A stretch of DNA of 63,913 nucleotides from a virus. The stretch lies in the IMG/VR virus record IMGVR_UViG_3300048918_000192, positions 1-63,913 of that record; one strand, given 5' to 3'. The translations under genes were made by a program, and so were the position numbers. The first letter of the stretch is position 1, and each line of letters starts with the position of its first letter. Positions 3,993 to 40,346 of the stretch are shown in pieces. A model generated the notes under the pieces. That model was not told the DNA's origin and did not search any database. It saw nothing but the letters and a program-made list of their open reading frames with translations.

Positions 3993-5051
3993 ATGCAGTT
4001 TCTTCAAACTAACGCAACCGACCTAAACGGGCTGCTCATCGCGATGCGGAACTTCCTTACCGCTAACGGATGGACTACGTTAGCAGACGGTACGGGCGGC
4101 GGCGGACTCACGCTCGAAATGACCAACGCGAACGGGCATGATTTCCAATTTACGTCGTCTACTAACGCGGCAACCGTTTACGTCGGTGTCGGCGGAACAG
4201 GGTCTGCGTTCAACGATCGTTTGCTCAAGTGCGCGTTCCAGAAAGCGGATATCGGTCTATCAGCTGGCTATACTGCTAAGCCTGCTATCACGAACGACAT
4301 GGCTGGGCCGTTTCCGAACATCTGGTTCTTCACTGACGATGCGGCTACTTATTGTCATGTGGTCATGCAGACTGGCAACGCTCGATACAACCACTTCAGC
4401 TTCGGCAACGTCGACAACAAGGGTCTCCACGCGGTCAATCTTCCGTATGCGTTTGGTTGCTATCACATCTGGTGGCAGTGGAACCCGTACTTCACGGGCA
4501 ACAGCGCTGACGCTTGCGCCTTCACGGACTTTAGTGCGGGCTCGCACAATATCGGCTTCTACTGTGAGGAGCAAAATAGCGAGGATATCAATTTCGCTGG
4601 CACGGCTGCTCGTATAGGTCTGCCTGACGGTGTTGTCGATCCGACGCTTGGCTTCACCGACGGTCCACTTGAAGCGGCTCTACTGCGGCAGACAATGACG
4701 CGGTACTGCGTCCAGACTATCCCAGGCGATAGCGCGGGGCTTGCACTCGACTTCCTCGACTATTACGATAACCAAGGGTACACCGGAGGAGTTCCAATCT
4801 TCCCTGTGCCTCTTGTGGTTCGCAACATCGCAGGCACTGTTCACACGCAAGTAGGAGAGTGGCCCGGTATCGGCAGCGTCAACGTTGACGGTCTATCTCC
4901 TAGCCAGGAGCTGGACTTTGCGGGTGAAGTTTGGATGGTGTTCCCTATCAAGCAGAAGGGAACATACGCTGCCAAGAACAATGGAGCTAATCCAGCACCC
5001 TTTACGAATACCCTCAATTATGGCATCGCTGTCAAGAAAGTGGATGCGTGA
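3993..5051 (+). CDS. Tail-tip structural protein, paralog 2 (function unknown)
   Basis: 352 aa. The N-terminal NATDLNGLLIAMRNFLTANGW and the block NIWFFTDDAATYCHVV...FSFGN parallel the upstream gene. Confidence 0.6.
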   Translation: MQFLQTNATDLNGLLIAMRNFLTANGWTTLADGTGGGGLTLEMTNANGHDFQFTSSTNAATVYVGVGGTGSAFNDRLLKCAFQKADIGLSAGYTAKPAITNDMAGPFPNIWFFTDDAATYCHVVMQTGNARYNHFSFGNVDNKGLHAVNLPYAFGCYHIWWQWNPYFTGNSADACAFTDFSAGSHNIGFYCEEQNSEDINFAGTAARIGLPDGVVDPTLGFTDGPLEAALLRQTMTRYCVQTIPGDSAGLALDFLDYYDNQGYTGGVPIFPVPLVVRNIAGTVHTQVGEWPGIGSVNVDGLSPSQELDFAGEVWMVFPIKQKGTYAAKNNGANPAPFTNTLNYGIAVKKVDA

Positions 5052-6712
5052 TACTAGGACCCATTGGAGCCGACCGTGGCACGACTGAAGCGCTAAAGAC
5101 AGGTCTCCTGTCAGGCGGGTCTGTAGCCGTACCCGAAACGCTCTCGGAGATCCTTGTAGCGGCTGACGATGCAATCGCAACGCCATCCCATTACATCTTG
5201 CCTGCTAGCACAGGTTCCGTCCTACGCGCTTTTGCAGACATCTTCTATTTCCGCATCTGGCCACTGCCGTCGGTGCTCGACGTGCAGAACCCGAAACGGG
5301 GCGTACCGATTCCGTTCCAACTCTGGAATGCATTCCTCGGACCCGAAACGCTTAACGTTATCACGCCAACGAACGCTGACGGCCTTACGCTCGATATAAC
5401 CACAGGTGACGTCTTCGCTCGGTTGGAGATGCGTACCGTCCACGCTACCATCGGCGCGGATGCTCCGAACCAAATCGATGCGCTATTTAACTTCGCGTTT
5501 GACGATGACGATGCAACTCTCCGCTTCCTCGCATTGCTGGCAGAAATCCTGCCTATCTTTGCTGAAGACCAGATCACCGAGAAGCTGGAGTGGAAGACCG
5601 ACGTGCTTCAGAACTACGATGGTTCGGAGCAGCGCATTGCACTCCGGCAGCGCCCGCGTAGGCAGTTCATTATGGACTACACCCTCACGGACGAAGCGGA
5701 CAGGAAGCTCCTCTACGACAAGCTGTTTAAGACCTCGGGGCTGACGGTGGTGGCGCCCGCCTACCAATACCAGTCGCGCTTGAAAGTCAGTACCGTCATC
5801 GGTGATAATAAGCTGTACACGAACACTCGTCGCGCAGACCTTCGCGCAGGTGAGAGCGTCCTTATCACAACCAAGGACGATGTTCACTTCCTTTACACCA
5901 TCGACCAAGTCTTTGCCGACTACGTTACCATCACGACAGCCTTCTCACAGGTTATCAAGAAGGGTGCAATCGTATGCGGAGCGTTTGACGGGCGTTACCC
6001 GAATAAGTCGGGACTAGGTATGATGGCGCTGGGCGGTCACGCTCAGCTGTCAGTCCTGCTAAGCAACCCTCGGCCGCAAGTGTCTTGGCCGGATGTAACG
6101 ATTCCCATTCCAACCTTCAACAGTAAGCCTCTGCTCCTGCGTCGTCCGCTTGCGGATGAGGAGGCAAAGGAGAATTTTGATGTCGGCCTCGACACCATCG
6201 ACAACGAGACCGGAAAGCCAGCGTACTACACATCATGGACGCAGCCGTTCATGGAGGGAGATCGCAAGTGGCTTATCCAAACTCTATTCGAACCCGACGA
6301 ACTGGAGTTCTGGCGTACCTTCCTCGACACGGTTAAGGGCAAGCAGAAGTCGTTCTACACTCCGACGTTTAGGCAGGACCTTGAGTGGGACGATTCGAAC
6401 CCTTTCCTAGTCGGTCAGATTCACGTCATGGGAACGGAGTACGCGACGCAATACTTCGGGAAACCCGCATACGACCAGCTTCAGATTGAAACTGACGTCG
6501 GCACCTTTGAGGTAGCTATCGATAATGTGGTCAACCTCGGTGATCGGACGCGCCTTAACTTCGTCACACCGATTCCGGTTGACGTCAGCACTGCGACCGT
6601 GCTACGCATCTCTTACTTGATGCTAGTCCGCCTGGGCGGGGATGAAGTCAGTCTAGTCCACTACCCGCTTTACTCGACTGTGAACGCGGCACTTAGGATG
6701 GCGGTTGCATAA
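5048..6712 (+). CDS. Distal tail protein-like (lambda gpM / RcGTA g12, DUF2460-like core)
   Basis: 554 aa with a GTGA overlap. LEWKTDVLQNYDGSEQRIALRQRPRRQF resembles the sGxEQR core of that family. It sits directly upstream of the BR0599-type gene. Confidence 0.5.
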   Translation: MILGPIGADRGTTEALKTGLLSGGSVAVPETLSEILVAADDAIATPSHYILPASTGSVLRAFADIFYFRIWPLPSVLDVQNPKRGVPIPFQLWNAFLGPETLNVITPTNADGLTLDITTGDVFARLEMRTVHATIGADAPNQIDALFNFAFDDDDATLRFLALLAEILPIFAEDQITEKLEWKTDVLQNYDGSEQRIALRQRPRRQFIMDYTLTDEADRKLLYDKLFKTSGLTVVAPAYQYQSRLKVSTVIGDNKLYTNTRRADLRAGESVLITTKDDVHFLYTIDQVFADYVTITTAFSQVIKKGAIVCGAFDGRYPNKSGLGMMALGGHAQLSVLLSNPRPQVSWPDVTIPIPTFNSKPLLLRRPLADEEAKENFDVGLDTIDNETGKPAYYTSWTQPFMEGDRKWLIQTLFEPDELEFWRTFLDTVKGKQKSFYTPTFRQDLEWDDSNPFLVGQIHVMGTEYATQYFGKPAYDQLQIETDVGTFEVAIDNVVNLGDRTRLNFVTPIPVDVSTATVLRISYLMLVRLGGDEVSLVHYPLYSTVNAALRMAVA

Positions 6713-31475: not shown

Positions 31476-31507
31476 TTTATAGGCGCAAGGCGCGCAATGC
31501 AAGCGAA
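31476..31507 (-). promoter_or_regulatory. Promoter-like element TTCGCTTGCA-N16-TATAAA (minus strand)
   Basis: The reverse complement of 31498-31507 is TTCGCTTGCA and that of 31476-31481 is TATAAA. The architecture matches 38822-38853 and 52497-52528. Confidence 0.55.
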
Positions 31508-37048: not shown

Positions 37049-37329
37049 TAGACTGTTCCTTCCAGTAATGCCTTGAACTTGGCATAGGTGTATTTCGATC
37101 GGACTTCACCCTTGTCCACCCTATCAACGAACTCCTGCATAGCTGCGCGGCATTCGTCCACAGTATTGGCTAACTGATGGGCTTGGGCGACACTGATACC
37201 AGCAAGGTAGGCGTCTGGCATACCATTGGCTCGATAGGAGCGTAGCTGCCTGACCACAGTGTCCAAGCGTGGACGAGCAGTCATAACGTGGATAGGACCA
37301 AGTTTACTGGTATCAATCGGATCTGGCAT
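37048..37329 (-). CDS. Hypothetical protein, first gene of the leftward operon
   Basis: 93 aa with a 1-nt overlap onto the downstream gene. Confidence 0.5.
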   Translation of the reverse strand: MPDPIDTSKLGPIHVMTARPRLDTVVRQLRSYRANGMPDAYLAGISVAQAHQLANTVDECRAAMQEFVDRVDKGEVRSKYTYAKFKALLEGTV

Positions 37330-37406
37330 GGTGGAACGCCCCTTGAAGTTAATAGGGTTAACGGTTGTTGCGTTTGATTACAAGCCCCTCCCTATGATAC
37401 TAAGTG

Positions 37407-37435
37407 AATATAGTTGTGGTCGATAAAATTGGCAG
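37407..37435 (-). promoter_or_regulatory. Candidate leftward promoter (CTGCCA-N17-TATATT)
   Basis: The reverse complement of 37430-37435 is CTGCCA and that of 37407-37412 is TATATT, with a 17-nt spacer. It lies about 75 nt upstream of the ATG at 37329. Confidence 0.3.
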
Positions 37436-37843
37436 ACTTATGTGCTGTGCATACGCGGGCGCGTGTAGCGTGGGCAATGGAAGCATAAGACTATTGGAGG
37501 GCGATGACAATACTATGCAATGGGGGCCCCCTAAGCACAGAAACACACAAACGTGAAAACCCTAAACCCCTTGGCACTGCACAAACGGCGGCCGGCCCTC
37601 CCCCGAATGTATTGTTGTGCCGTGTGCCAGGTCCTATACTGGTATCTATGTTTCTTTGTTTCCTACCCTTATAGGGTTATGATAGTGTTTTTCGTCTGTA
37701 TATTGCATGTTTATTCGACTTATAGAACTAATTCTCCCTCCTATACCTGTTTTAGCCCCTCCCGAGGACCCCATCTGAATTATGGCAGCTCCAGATAAAT
37801 TGGCATAAATCAAGCAATTCGCACATCTGTCTAAAGATAGCTG

Positions 37844-37872
37844 TTGCGATGTCTGCACAGGTGCGCTTATAT
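37844..37872 (+). promoter_or_regulatory. Candidate rightward promoter (TTGCGA-N17-TTATAT)
   Basis: It sits at the right edge of the AT-rich segment and points into the stem-loop array. Confidence 0.3.
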
Positions 37873-37959
37873 GGGGACAAGCTGGTGCTGCCCACTGGAT
37901 GTTGATGGTGTGTCTGGATCCCACCCATCGGCTACTCGACTAGTGGATGCATCAGACAG

Positions 37960-38300
37960 CCGTGTAGCAGCGGGACCTGACCAGATAATCCTGCTACCGT
38001 AGAGAATGAACGCAACTGGGCGTCGGACGTAGGTCTGCCGCCTAAATGTCTAAGCCCGCCGGAGGCGCTTGCGCACAACATGGCTGTGGTCATAGACGGG
38101 TGCCTTCGTCACTGAGGGCACCCACGACCAAGTGACTGGTCGTATAGCGCTGCTGCTCGACAGCGTCTGTCCGTGAGGACGGGTTTGGGTCTGCACCCTC
38201 CCAATATCCCCCGCAGACCCATTCGGGGTTGACTGCCCACCTTGCTAATGACGACTAGGGCGCCTCAGCGATGGGGCGTCCTAGCTCGTGGCCGCGGCCG
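37960..38300 (+). ncRNA. Candidate structured non-coding RNA (array of at least 7 stem-loops)
   Basis: The stems are 37964-70/37991-97, 38098-104/38117-23, 38125-30/38137-42, 38147-52/38161-66, 38167-72/38177-82 (GUGA loop), 38187-94/38213-20 and 38255-64/38275-84. Three stems contain G.U pairs that are possible only on the plus strand. There is no credible ORF. Confidence 0.35.
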
Positions 38301-38314
38301 CTCGACGGGTAGCC

Positions 38315-38351
38315 CAAAAAATAGTAGGTGGGTCAAAAAATAGTAGGTGGG
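38315..38351. repeat. Tandem direct repeat, 2 x CAAAAAATAGTAGGTGGG (19-nt period)
   Basis: 38315-38332 and 38334-38351 are identical 18-mers separated by a single T. Confidence 0.9.
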
Positions 38352-38625
38352 GGCGAGCCGACCGATTTATTGGTTAATTCGAGCTAGTCGTTAACCATCT
38401 ATCGGCGACAGGTGTCGACCGAAAGGGACACTGGCGTTCCAAGCGTCCTACATCAATAACACAGTATAGCACGGCCGGCCCCCTGTCGCAAGACGGCAAC
38501 GGTTTAGGTCTGTACGCCTGAATTCGCACATCACCGGCAGATTTCGCTTGCAATAGGCGTGAAGCTGTGCAGATCGCTGTCCCGATTTAGCACATTTTTT
38601 CTTTCGAGAGAAGTGAATTAGTGTA

Positions 38626-38654
38626 TTGACATCAGGTCCAAACGAAGTTACAAT
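38626..38654 (+). promoter_or_regulatory. Near-consensus sigma70 promoter TTGACA-N17-TACAAT
   Basis: TTGACA is at 38626-38631 and TACAAT at 38649-38654, with a spacer of exactly 17 nt. Confidence 0.7.
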
Positions 38655-38660
38655 GGTAGC

Positions 38661-38796
38661 GGCCGTACGGCCGACGGCCCCCTCCCCTGATCGCGATTTT
38701 GTCCAACTTTGGGACACATCGACGTAAGGCCGATTTAAGCCGGGCTACAGCCCCGATCGTCGATTTCCGACCCGTAGGGGCGAAAAAGATTTTTTG
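38661..38796 (+). ncRNA. Candidate short transcript from the consensus promoter
   Basis: It starts at the GGCCGTACGGCC palindrome (38661-72). It ends at GCCCC...GGGGC (38750-81) with an inner GTCG/CGAC stem, followed by GAAAAAGATTTTTT. No ORF with an RBS is present. Confidence 0.3.
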
Positions 38797-38821
38797 TCGC
38801 TAATCGGACTTTCGGCATTTT

Positions 38822-38853
38822 TTCGCTTGCACATCCGAACGAATTAGTATAGG
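38822..38853 (+). promoter_or_regulatory. Promoter-like element TTCGCTTGCA-N16-TATAGG
   Basis: The exact 10-mer is at 38822-38831 and TATAGG is at 38848-38853. Confidence 0.5.
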
Positions 38854-38927
38854 CGGGCGCCCCCGCCCCGCGCAGTTTAACTCGCCTAGTTCGGTGTCCC
38901 AAATTGGTGCAAACTTTTTTGGAACTA

Positions 38928-38965
38928 TTCGCTTGCAATGGGTCCGCCATGCGTGTACCTATAAT
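38928..38965 (+). promoter_or_regulatory. TTCGCTTGCA motif plus TATAAT box upstream of the first rightward gene
   Basis: The 10-mer is at 38928-38937 and TATAAT at 38960-38965. The 22-nt spacing from CTTGCA is atypical. AAGGAG and an ATG follow at 38977 and 38989. Confidence 0.45.
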
Positions 38966-38988
38966 GCATGGAAACGAAGGAGACCACG

Positions 38989-39102
38989 ATGCGCCTGTTC
39001 ACCCGCCCCGCCCCCAAGCCCGCCACGCTCTCGGAGCTCCAGCGCGCCTGGTACGAAGTTTACGCCATTGCCCGCGCTCAGCGCGAAGCGGGTGTCAAGT
39101 GA
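38989..39102 (+). CDS. Small hypothetical protein (37 aa)
   Basis: AAGGAG lies 6 nt upstream of the ATG. The product is MRLFTRPAPKPATLSELQRAWYEVYAIARAQREAGVK. Its stop overlaps the next GTG start (GTGA). Confidence 0.45.
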   Translation: MRLFTRPAPKPATLSELQRAWYEVYAIARAQREAGVK

Positions 39103-39296
39103 GCCGCCCGTACTACACGCTGGTCGAGCTCGAGGATTCGGGTTGGTCCATTCGGTTCGGGGACTACTTCAAGTCCGTCGTTCGCACCGAGCTGGAGGAC
39201 GCCGTCTACTCGGGTACGCCCCGCAAGCGGTTGCGCATTATCCAGTCGGGGGACCTCCAGTCGGAGATCGAGCAAGCCGTACGCCAGCTCCCATAG
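39099..39296 (+). CDS. Small hypothetical protein (65 aa)
   Basis: The GTG start is coupled to the upstream stop. The product is SRPYYTLVELEDSGWSIRFGDYF... Confidence 0.5.
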   Translation: MSRPYYTLVELEDSGWSIRFGDYFKSVVRTELEDAVYSGTPRKRLRIIQSGDLQSEIEQAVRQLP

Positions 39297-39373
39297 GTCG
39301 AAACCCGCTCCGCGGGTCGTCCGGTATCGCCGGGCCTGATGAGACCATCAGTAGCAAGCAAGGAGTAGTCAAA

Positions 39374-39778
39374 ATGCCGAACTATAGCGAAATGACCAAG
39401 AAGCAGCTTATTGCTCTCGCCGCCGACCGCAAGGTCGAGCTGCCCAGCAAAGCCAACGTTGCTACCATCGTCGCCGCACTGGAAGCCGCCGACAAGCCGG
39501 CGTCCGCTGCTACAGGGTCGGGCCTTAAAATCGAAAAGGATCGCCCCGAGCAGAACGGTATCAAGCGCCCATCTGCGGGTGGACGTTGCCGCGCTGTATG
39601 GGATGCGCTGGATGCGTACCGTGCAGAGACGAAGGAGCTTCCGACTGCCAAGGTCGTTGCGGAGCTCGCAGCGGACGAAGGGTGGAACCCGAACAACGCC
39701 AGCATCGAGTTCTACCAGTGGAGGAAGTACAATGGCATCACGGGGCGTCAGGCCAAGCCTGCCAAGTCGGATGCGTAG
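39374..39778 (+). CDS. HeH/SAP-like N-terminal domain plus 'EQNGIKRP' domain protein (paralog of 21775..22323)
   Basis: 134 aa with AAGGAG upstream. It has MTKKQLIALAADRKVELPSKANVATIVAALEAA (Rho_N/SAP-like). PEQNGIKRPSAGGRCRAVWDALD...FYQWRKYNGITGR follows. Confidence 0.65.
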   Translation: MPNYSEMTKKQLIALAADRKVELPSKANVATIVAALEAADKPASAATGSGLKIEKDRPEQNGIKRPSAGGRCRAVWDALDAYRAETKELPTAKVVAELAADEGWNPNNASIEFYQWRKYNGITGRQAKPAKSDA

Positions 39779-39804
39779 TACCCCTCTAACACAGTAGTAC
39801 AGGA

Positions 39805-39837
39805 GGGGGGCGCCTAGTGCGTCCCCCTTTTTTATTT
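39805..39837 (+). terminator. Rho-independent terminator
   Basis: The stem GGGGGGCGC / GCGTCCCCC has one G.U pair and a CTAGT loop. It is followed by TTTTTTATTT. Confidence 0.8.
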
Positions 39838-40124
39838 GATTGTATTATGTGTATTACATACATAGCACAGCAACACAGATGCATGGAGTCGACTCGATTC
39901 ACTCACGACGACTCGATGAGCCCCTCGGGGTACTATGTCAATTCTCCGATCGCCGGCCGGCCGTCCCATGCCGAGTTCGGCGGCTATATTTTAGCTCGGT
40001 TTACATCTGTTGCGCATACTGTGCTTCGTCCCCTTACAGTGTGTTAGTCCACGTCTCTTTGTTTCTGTCTTGCGATGTGTTGTGCGGCCCGCTAGTGTTG
40101 TTAGCGTCATTAGGGGAACCCTTC

Positions 40125-40346
40125 ATGTTAGTACGGAACGACCACGATACGCTCACTGTTCAGCATACGCTTGACGAGACAGATGACCCCGACTGCCATA
40201 CGCCACGGACTATGTCCACAGCGGAGCTGATCTACCATGCTGCGAACTTGCACCTGTTCCGCATGGACATGAAAGGCCAGAGCGGTCAACCACTGTGGTC
40301 ACTCCGGTCCCTCCCCGAAATCCGTGGAAAGCGGGTGACGTTGTAA
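40125..40346 (+). CDS. Small hypothetical protein (73 aa)
   Basis: AGGGGA lies 7 nt upstream of the ATG. Only the 3' part of ORF 39840..40346 is kept. Confidence 0.35.
   Translation: MLVRNDHDTLTVQHTLDETDDPDCHTPRTMSTAELIYHAANLHLFRMDMKGQSGQPLWSLRSLPEIRGKRVTL

Follow-up and report, generated by a model that had tools for sequence, protein, structure and literature searches.

The stretch of DNA analysed here, referred to as the window, comprises positions 1 to 63,913 of the IMG/VR virus record IMGVR_UViG_3300048918_000192, and with its 63.9 kb it resembles a complete siphophage genome. The genes form a leftward block between 13.5 and 37.3 kb and a rightward block beginning at position 38989. The leftward block encodes an NrS-1-type primase-helicase of 840 amino acids (Pfam PF22763 and DUF3987) with 72% identity to that of the Sphingomonas phage vB_StuS_MMDA13 (MMDA13 in the following) and approximately 56% identity to those of the Nipunavirus phages PaMx25, NP1, and DoCa3. 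The two divergent blocks are separated by a gap of 1659 bp (37330-38988). This gap is the subject of the present work, and its central element is a predicted gene for a structured non-coding RNA, flanked by promoter-like elements and short repeats.

A gene-free gap shared by related phages

A first-pass annotation, made from the sequence alone, had found no credible open reading frame (ORF) in the gap, and our analysis agrees with this. The longest ORFs encode 81-92 amino acids, and tblastn searches against the relatives described below returned only short and weak matches, in which two different frames matched the same DNA. The conservation is therefore at the nucleotide level and not at the protein level, and coding potential of the gap ORFs is ruled out.

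Relatives were found via the primase in viral contigs, via the RNA motif in metagenomes, and via a 134-amino-acid protein encoded beside the gap, which was used to search a large protein collection. This resulted in 15 distinct relatives, five of the window's own subtype (A-type) and ten of a second subtype (B-type, including MMDA13 and L045; L numbers are used where single relatives have to be told apart). In all 15, among them the cultured MMDA13, the same position is occupied by a gene-free gap (1.19-1.92 kb), and all share the layout of a leftward primase operon, the gap, small rightward ORFs, and the gene for the 134-amino-acid protein. The gap is conserved across these relatives, and the idea raised with the annotation, that related phages would carry ordinary genes at this position and the window a decayed copy, found no support in any of the 15.

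The gap DNA gave zero nucleotide matches, near or distant, in 50,697 phage records. Two motifs that were used to scan viral contigs recovered only the contig of L002 together with chance matches, and an exact-motif search through bacterial genomes, one per species, gave two chance matches, the element not being found in these cellular genomes. One of the relatives, L040 (JGI Ga0181360_100001, 63629 bp), begins inside the gap, and its first 1392 bp are gene-free and contain the RNA. This start is perhaps only the point where a circular assembly was opened, and it may also point to ends of the genome in the vicinity of the gap.

Taken together, we consider it likely that the gap is a conserved non-coding control region in a clade of MMDA13-like siphophages with NrS-1-type primase-helicases, and that the structured RNA gene lies at its centre.

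Fold, strand, and conservation of the RNA

A dense array of stem-loops between 37960 and 38300 had been noted in the first pass. The array is borne out by strong + strand folding of 37840-38320 and by covariation in 15 phages, and its interpretation as one discrete structured RNA gene of approximately 415 nucleotides (nt) with its own predicted promoter is strongly supported. The segment 37840-38320 folds with -221.7 kcal/mol on the + strand (z = -4.9), compared with z = -1.3 for the - strand. For the first five homologues the z values ranged from -3.2 to -4.7 on the + strand and from -0.8 to -3.9 on the - strand, and in all five the + strand gave the better fold, by 19-40 kcal/mol.

Covariation was quantified in alignments that were made with MAFFT throughout. 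The stem of the P3 hairpin (helices are named as in Table 1) differs in sequence in every phage while its complementarity is kept: the 8 pairs are 95% paired, 7 of the 8 show compensatory changes, none of 500 shuffles was as good, and slid partners were only 23-60% paired. P3 and P5 together contribute 24 pairs (91.6% paired, 21 compensatory), and P3 and P4 followed through 14 sequences are 90.4% paired versus 60.1% after shuffling. For the whole RNA, RNAalifold gave 82 pairs in 14 helices from the ten B-type relatives, 51 of them with changes on both sides. An independent count on the B-type RNAs found 91.8% paired, compared to 72.7 ± 1.0% in shuffled and 36-41% in slid controls, as well as 158 double-change cells versus 53; not one of 500 shuffles came up to the RNA in any of the five measures. 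Compensatory base changes preserve the fold of the RNA.

The B-type helices contain 126 paired cells of the G-U type, and when the other strand is read the paired fraction falls to 78.0%. This asymmetry, together with the folding energies, identifies the + strand as the RNA strand, and it contradicts an interpretation of the array as a DNA-level feature such as cruciforms or single-strand DNA signals. Inverted repeats would of course exist in the DNA too, and the variation in gap length from 1.2 to 1.9 kb could be expected of a remnant of lost genes. Against this, many of the hairpins are capped by RNA-type tetraloops (UUCG, GNRA, or CUUG), a conserved promoter is accompanied by a terminator-like end, and a gene or protein-level conservation is absent from the locus in every relative. 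We therefore regard a DNA-level feature, as well as gene decay, as very improbable.

The hallmarks of the RNA are present in the gap of every relative examined. Its P3 loop, GGGACCNGNCCAGAUAAU, does not vary among the first five homologues and has 1-2 variable positions in later ones. The fold is predicted to be closed by the long-range helix P1, in which GCAA at the 5' end pairs with UUGC just before the last hairpin, and the sequence of this helix is invariant in the relatives. The invariant 5' GCUGGU (37881-37886) is complementary to ACCAG in the conserved P3 loop (37979-37983), and neither side varies. A pseudoknot of this kind could explain the conservation of the loop, covariation being uninformative since both sides are invariant. 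The whole-RNA alignment of the A-type relatives likewise suggests an alternative pairing of invariant segments, namely of 5' CUGGU with the loop ACCAG. A pairing of the conserved AGACNGCC box with the conserved GUGGUCAU motif was also considered but was dropped, as its register differs between the two subtypes.

For an assessment of homology across the subtypes, a covariance model (R1) was built from B-type relatives alone, without any A-type sequence. R1 has a single match in the window, at 37952-38093 (49.4 bits, E approximately 1e-13), and it finds all A-type copies with E values from 1e-13 to 4e-7; decoy loci, chosen for carrying the loop motif, scored at most 12.4 bits. The model also gave 28.7 bits (E approximately 1e-6) in PaMx25 and 23.3 bits in DoCa3. 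Both of these matches lie inside an intergenic region of approximately 410 nt after the second rightward gene (4633-5046 in PaMx25, L017; approximately 4905-5315 in DoCa3, L018), which contains a promoter-like TTGTGC-17-TATAGT and an annotated terminator and whose ends are nearly identical between PaMx25, a Pseudomonas phage, and DoCa3, a Xanthomonas phage. The divergent junction of the Nipunavirus phages is only approximately 400 bp long, and the related element sits elsewhere in the genome and lacks the convergent promoter described below. A reduced version of the RNA in the Pseudomonas and Xanthomonas Nipunavirus phages is probable from these matches, and only probable since the E values of R1 are rough.

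Rfam 15 (4227 models, including RNase P, tmRNA, 6S, group I and II introns, GOLLD, ROOL, HEARO, and OLE) gave no match reaching the gathering score of its family in the whole window, and nothing relevant at E values up to 10 in 37200-40300. Likewise the gaps of 13 relatives had no match, and that of L043 had none even at E values up to 10. ARAGORN detected neither tRNA nor tmRNA in the window, and in the literature we found no earlier description of the RNA and no transcript data. The RNA is apparently an undescribed family within a known kind of large phage-borne structured RNAs.

The -35 and -10 elements in front of the RNA are found at the same distance upstream in 13 of the 15 relatives by pattern search, and in the remaining two (L037 and L044) we read TTGTAA or TTGTAG, an 18-nt spacer, and TATTGT by eye. 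Over the 15 relatives the variants are TTGCGA, TTGTGA, or TTGTAA, followed after 16-18 nt by TTATAT, CTATAA, or TATTGT, and these promoter-like elements are conserved in position. At the other end the terminal GC-rich hairpin is present in all, and it is followed by at least four U in 6 and by three U in 4 of the 15 relatives.

Some observations weigh against the RNA gene as drawn in Table 1. The sequences used for counting are also those from which the consensus structure had been obtained. For the five A-type sequences the alignment over the whole RNA is poor (covariation term +5.2, with only 19 of 68 pairs compensatory), as is the one made with MAFFT and RNAalifold for the 3' domain in the first five homologues, and the window helices beyond P3-P5 therefore rest on single-sequence folding and on the matching architecture in the relatives. 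The R1 matches in Nipunavirus, besides their rough E values, cover the AGAC box and P3 only. Finally, the promoters and ends of the RNA are calls at the motif level, and the terminal hairpin in the window has no U tract, a terminator scan finding none at 38290, so that the 3' end is uncertain here and read-through is possible.

Table 1 Predicted features of the gap between the divergent gene blocks, from left to right.
Feature	Position	Strand	Remarks
Left third of the gap	37330-37843		upstream of the leftward replication operon
Two modules of approximately 55 nt, AGCCCCTCCC...TGAAT...AAATTGGCA	37383-37434, 37754-37813
Candidate leftward promoters	37510..37482, 37435..37407, 37423..37394	-	weak, 9/12 matches
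T-rich conserved block TATCTATGTTTCTTTGTTTC and palindrome CCCTTATAGGG	37644-37676
RNA gene promoter TTGCGA-17-TTATAT	37844-37872	+	motif-level call
Large structured non-coding RNA	37874-38292	+	approximately 415 nt, approximately 13-14 helices
P1, 5' strand	37878-37881	+	GCAAG-type, pairs with CUUG 38241-38244
Hairpins of the 5' domain	37883-37954	+
Conserved AGACAGCC	37954-37961	+
P3 hairpin	stem 37964-37971 with 37990-37997; loop 37972-37989	+	18-nt loop
UGAAC	between P3 and P4	+
P4	38017-38044	+
P5	38048-38097	+	GCUUGC tip
Four short hairpins	38098-38182	+
P9	38186-38221	+
P10	38226-38238	+
UUGCU	38242-38246	+
P11	38251-38289	+	terminal GC-rich hairpin
Two tandem AAAAAATAGTAGGTGGG copies	38316-38332, 38335-38351		17-nt core, directly 3' of the RNA
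GACCGATTT box	38360-38368		conserved
GTTAAC-type sites	within 38360-38398
CtrA half-site TTAACCAT	38391-38398		single, position conserved in relatives
Leftward promoter TTGCGA-17-TATACT	38491..38463	-	promoter scan; TG before -10; converges on the RNA gene
TTTCGCTTGCA box 1	38542-38552	+	-35 type
Rightward promoter TTGACA-17-TACAAT	38626-38654	+	near-consensus, 11/12 positions
Rightward leader	38698-38913
Inverted-repeat pair TTTGTCCAACTTTGGGACAC / GTGTCCCAAATTGGTGCAAA	38698-38717, 38894-38913
Block GGCCGATTTAAGCCGGGCTACAGCCCCGATC	38728-38758		conserved, 88% identical to L002; present in L044
TTCGCTTGCA box 2	38821-38831	+	TATAGG 16 nt later
TTCGCTTGCA box 3, TATAAT, ribosome binding site GAAGGAG, ATG 38989	38927-38991	+	start of the first rightward gene

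Promoters, repeats, and possible roles of the RNA

The near-consensus sigma70 promoter and the three exact copies of TTCGCTTGCA that were listed in the first pass are both present to the right of the RNA. A transcript from the near-consensus promoter would begin with the hairpin GGCCGUACGGCC, and in the homologous region of L030 we read TTTACA-17-TAAAAT, followed by the same hairpin, by eye. The exact copies of TTCGCTTGCA start at 38543, 38822, and 38928, with a fourth at 31507 (- strand) in another intergenic spot, and when up to one mismatch is allowed the window contains 16 copies versus 5.9 expected. CTTGCA is followed 16 nt on by TATAGG, TATAAA, or TATATG at 38822, 31507 (-), and 52497, and the first rightward promoter of PaMx25 uses a TTCGCTTGCA box. 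The recurrence at intergenic sites, the spaced TATAnn, and the use in PaMx25 lead us to read TTCGCTTGCA as the predicted -35 box of host-type promoters, although the two gap copies at 38543 and 38928 have a non-standard -35/-10 spacing. In box 3 the 22 nt to TATAAT are too long for a standard sigma70 promoter, and this box may therefore work differently. Within the rightward leader, the GGCCGATTTAAGCCGGGCTACAGCCCCGATC block and the inverted-repeat pair may be regulatory, and the pair could function as operators.

We propose that the RNA would be an independent + strand gene, running in the same direction as the rightward genes, driven by a host sigma70-type promoter and ending at the strong GC-rich hairpin. 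Host RNA polymerase would transcribe it early in infection, from a promoter type like that of the early rightward promoters. Between the RNA and these promoters lie the short conserved motifs (the 17-mer pair, GACCGATTT, and the CtrA half-site), and the right third of the gap would hold the host-type promoters of the rightward operon, with TTCGCTTGCA as their -35 box and with possible operator repeats. Transcription from the leftward promoter would cross the RNA gene in the opposite direction on its way to the replication operon. The RNA itself would act as a folded molecule (a protein-binding scaffold, a decoy, or a catalytic RNA) and not as a simple antisense RNA or leader.

The arrangement of the 3' end could also be read differently, the RNA then being no free product but a giant leader or attenuator acting in cis, a sensor in the rightward 5' leader, with the closure of P1 deciding on termination at the terminal hairpin. 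The RNA is oriented like the rightward genes, P1 has its 3' strand 8-12 nt ahead of the terminator-like hairpin as is typical of riboswitch expression platforms, and a U tract that follows the hairpin in some members only would fit leaky termination. However, the first ORF is approximately 600-700 nt away from the hairpin, strong independent promoters are predicted in the interval from the RNA to the first rightward gene, and in 7 of the 15 phages a leftward promoter faces the RNA. The invariance of P1 makes covariation uninformative on this point. We find a leader of this kind rather improbable.

All five A-type relatives, MMDA13, and L045 carry the facing promoter; in the other eight B-type relatives the same search did not find it. 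In the window its spacer contains one of the GGCCGGCC sites to which the first-pass annotation had drawn attention. The count of exactly three such sites is correct, but 1.55 are expected and at least three were found in 20 of 100 shuffles, so that any significance of GGCCGGCC is ruled out as chance level. Together with the RNA gene the convergent promoter could form an antisense or transcriptional-interference switch, a toggle timing the leftward operon and possibly modulated by CtrA at TTAACCAT, where leftward transcripts must cross 1.1 kb, antisense to the RNA gene, before they reach the replication operon. In agreement with this, the CtrA half-site lies just downstream of the convergent promoter, and CtrA controls gap-region promoters in other alphaproteobacterial phages as determined by electrophoretic mobility shift and reporter assays (PMC9437464). 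The half-site is single in the gap and not enriched (2 in the whole window versus 0.85 expected), and the full CtrA site TTAA-N7-TTAAC does not occur in the window even with one mismatch; a cluster of CtrA sites in the window is ruled out. The absence of the promoter from 8 of the 10 B-type phages and of the whole layout from Nipunavirus also speaks against the switch, and a simple antisense function needs neither 14 helices maintained by compensatory changes nor invariant loops. A switch of this type thus seems unlikely as the explanation of the RNA.

The perfect tandem 18-mer of the first-pass annotation is indeed a perfect tandem repeat, but the core is 17 nt and the period 19 (Tandem Repeats Finder; 1.9 copies, 100% matches). 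One or two copies of AAAAAATAGTAGGTGGG are found at the same place in L002, L037, L038, L044, and L047, and a degenerate copy in L041. In other relatives AAAAAATAGTAGGTGGG is replaced by the variant AACAAGCCGAGGGGAGGG, and L030 carries four copies of CTCCACTATAGG (approximately positions 1400-1490, with a spacing of 17-24 nt), an iteron-like turnover of the short repeat 3' of the RNA. Generally, the AAAAAATAGTAGGTGGG pair, GACCGATTT, and TTAACCAT keep their position across the relatives, and their copy number, even their sequence, turns over; TTAACCAT is present in 1-5 copies, with five in L040 and four in MMDA13, numbers that do amount to a cluster of CtrA sites in these relatives.

This turnover would be expected of a replication origin where the 17-mers and their replacements are iterons for a phage initiator (e.g. 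the primase-helicase), an AT-rich patch is the unwinding element, and transcription of the structured RNA activates or primes the origin, as ColE1 RNA II does or as at the lambda origin. The AT-rich stretch that had been proposed as an unwinding or origin element is real but modest, the GC content per 100 nt being 0.34-0.46 across 37630-37830 compared to approximately 0.56 for the genome. The low-GC patch at 37630-37780, the location of the gap next to the replication operon, and the minimum of the cumulative GC skew near 37-40 kb are all compatible with an origin. The turn in GC skew coincides, however, with the switch in gene orientation and is therefore not independent evidence. The two repeat copies of the window are fewer than the three or more phased repeats beside an AT-rich element that characterise iterons, and they are approximately 540 nt away from the AT-rich patch (37780 to 38316), on the other side of the RNA gene. 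DnaA boxes are not found in the gap; none of the 12 matches to TKATCCACA with one mismatch falls in 37330-38988, and their total in the window is below chance. The related Nipunavirus element is not located at the divergent junction, and NrS-1-type primase-polymerases need no primer made by RNA polymerase. We consider it improbable that the gap is to be explained as an origin. Of the mixture of origin, early/late switch, and regulatory RNA originally suggested for the gap, the RNA is thus strongly upheld, and the conserved divergent and convergent host-type promoters support the promoter or switch part at the level of sequence motifs, while for the origin no positive evidence was obtained.

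An origin, a leader, and an antisense switch are each compatible with the RNA gene and could coexist with it. We nevertheless favour a role of the RNA as a molecule of its own, since 14 helices and the invariant loops are maintained and, mainly, since the probable reduced version in Nipunavirus lies elsewhere, where it has neither the divergent junction nor the convergent promoter. To us a trans-acting role as a folded molecule appears about evenly balanced with the alternatives taken together. More speculatively, and with considerable doubt, the RNA may represent a novel class among the large and ornate RNAs of phages, with a biochemical task of its own, being a ribozyme, an RNA-only assembly, or a ribonucleoprotein subunit, tied to replication or host takeover in siphophages with NrS-1-type primase-polymerases and with a core of AGAC box and P3 loop kept from Sphingomonas phages to the Nipunavirus phages of Pseudomonas aeruginosa and Xanthomonas.

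Surroundings of the gap and comparison with known systems

The five A-type relatives have conserved counterparts of the sequence blocks in the left third of the gap, and 37496-37702 is 71% identical to L002. A sigma54-type interpretation of the AAATTGGCA repeats was dropped, since it agrees with the window and with L002 but does not fit L037, L038, or L044.

To the right of the gap, the 134-amino-acid protein (39374-39778) has 433 homologues, many of them on contigs of 57-65 kb, which makes it a marker of a large, mostly uncultured phage clade. Its N-terminus is SAP/Rho-N-like, and one homologue carries PF07498; the copy in the window has no Pfam match. Between an ORF ending at 39298 and the start of this gene at 39374 there is a candidate type II hammerhead ribozyme (39296-39354, + strand). 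Its three stems, the GAAA and CUGAUGA cores, and a GUC cleavage site are present, and its score of 26.1 bits does not reach the Rfam threshold of 37. In L038 a hammerhead match above threshold (41.8 bits) is found in exactly the same position (5927-5988), and a strict hammerhead pattern occurs at these two loci only. After the gene follows a second gene-free stretch of approximately 350 nt (39779-40126), where the third GGCCGGCC site is located. It contains a clear intrinsic terminator (39801-39831) and, in common with 11 relatives, a conserved block GGTCGGGGTAG-GGGTCAATCTT...CGC-ATCCC-GCAATTTT together with a promoter-like CTTGTAACGC...GCTATACC.

Large non-coding RNAs with a complex fold are rare, and those of known function are ribozymes or the cores of ribonucleoproteins. 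Here we have an apparently undescribed RNA class with approximately 14 helices in every examined member of a widespread, mostly uncultured phage clade, and this class is experimentally reachable, as MMDA13 is in culture and a reduced version is apparently present in P. aeruginosa phages of the PaMx25/NP1 type.

The gap itself has already been described for MMDA13, as a non-coding segment of 1186 bp with the 12-bp repeat TGCGTTAACCAT and promoters predicted by Bprom and without mention of an RNA (Marmo et al. 2020, PMC7472734). For the structured RNA there seems to be no earlier description. The MMDA13 repeat has been read as CtrA sites (PMC9437464, PMC7472734), and the MMDA13 gap is among the cases in a study of the LPEG phages of Alphaproteobacteria, which have gap or terminal-repeat regions rich in CtrA sites (Front Microbiol 2022, PMC9437464). 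The gaps of MMDA13 and the window occupy the same locus between the same divergent arms of phages whose primases are 72% identical, and both have a lower GC content. The window gap is longer, it contains one copy of TTAACCAT compared to four, and its AAAAAATAGTAGGTGGG pair is missing from MMDA13. With the LPEG gaps it shares the position of the TTAACCAT half-site, which is kept in the window and in most relatives, but not the high density of CtrA sites. The CtrA model of the LPEG phages leaves the structured RNA unexplained, and the gap that was published for MMDA13 as CtrA-regulated calls for a new reading, as approximately one third of it would be an RNA gene and not promoter space.

In plasmids of the ColE1 type, RNA II and RNA I form a convergent sense/antisense control module. 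As in that system, a structured transcript of several hundred nt faces a convergent promoter beside replication functions. In contrast to ColE1, the antisense promoter in the window is located outside the RNA and not in its 5' part, and it is missing in many relatives.

GOLLD, ROOL, and OLE are large ornate RNAs of bacteria and phages whose function is unknown. Their structures have been addressed in a cryo-electron microscopy study (PMC12286853). The window RNA differs from these families in having no Rfam match, in being smaller, in not being located beside tRNAs, and in being so far confined to one phage clade. It resembles them, the family features being those generally known and its own being read from sequence, in its size of several hundred nt, in its many helices supported by covariation, in being phage-borne, and in being encoded by a free-standing gene.

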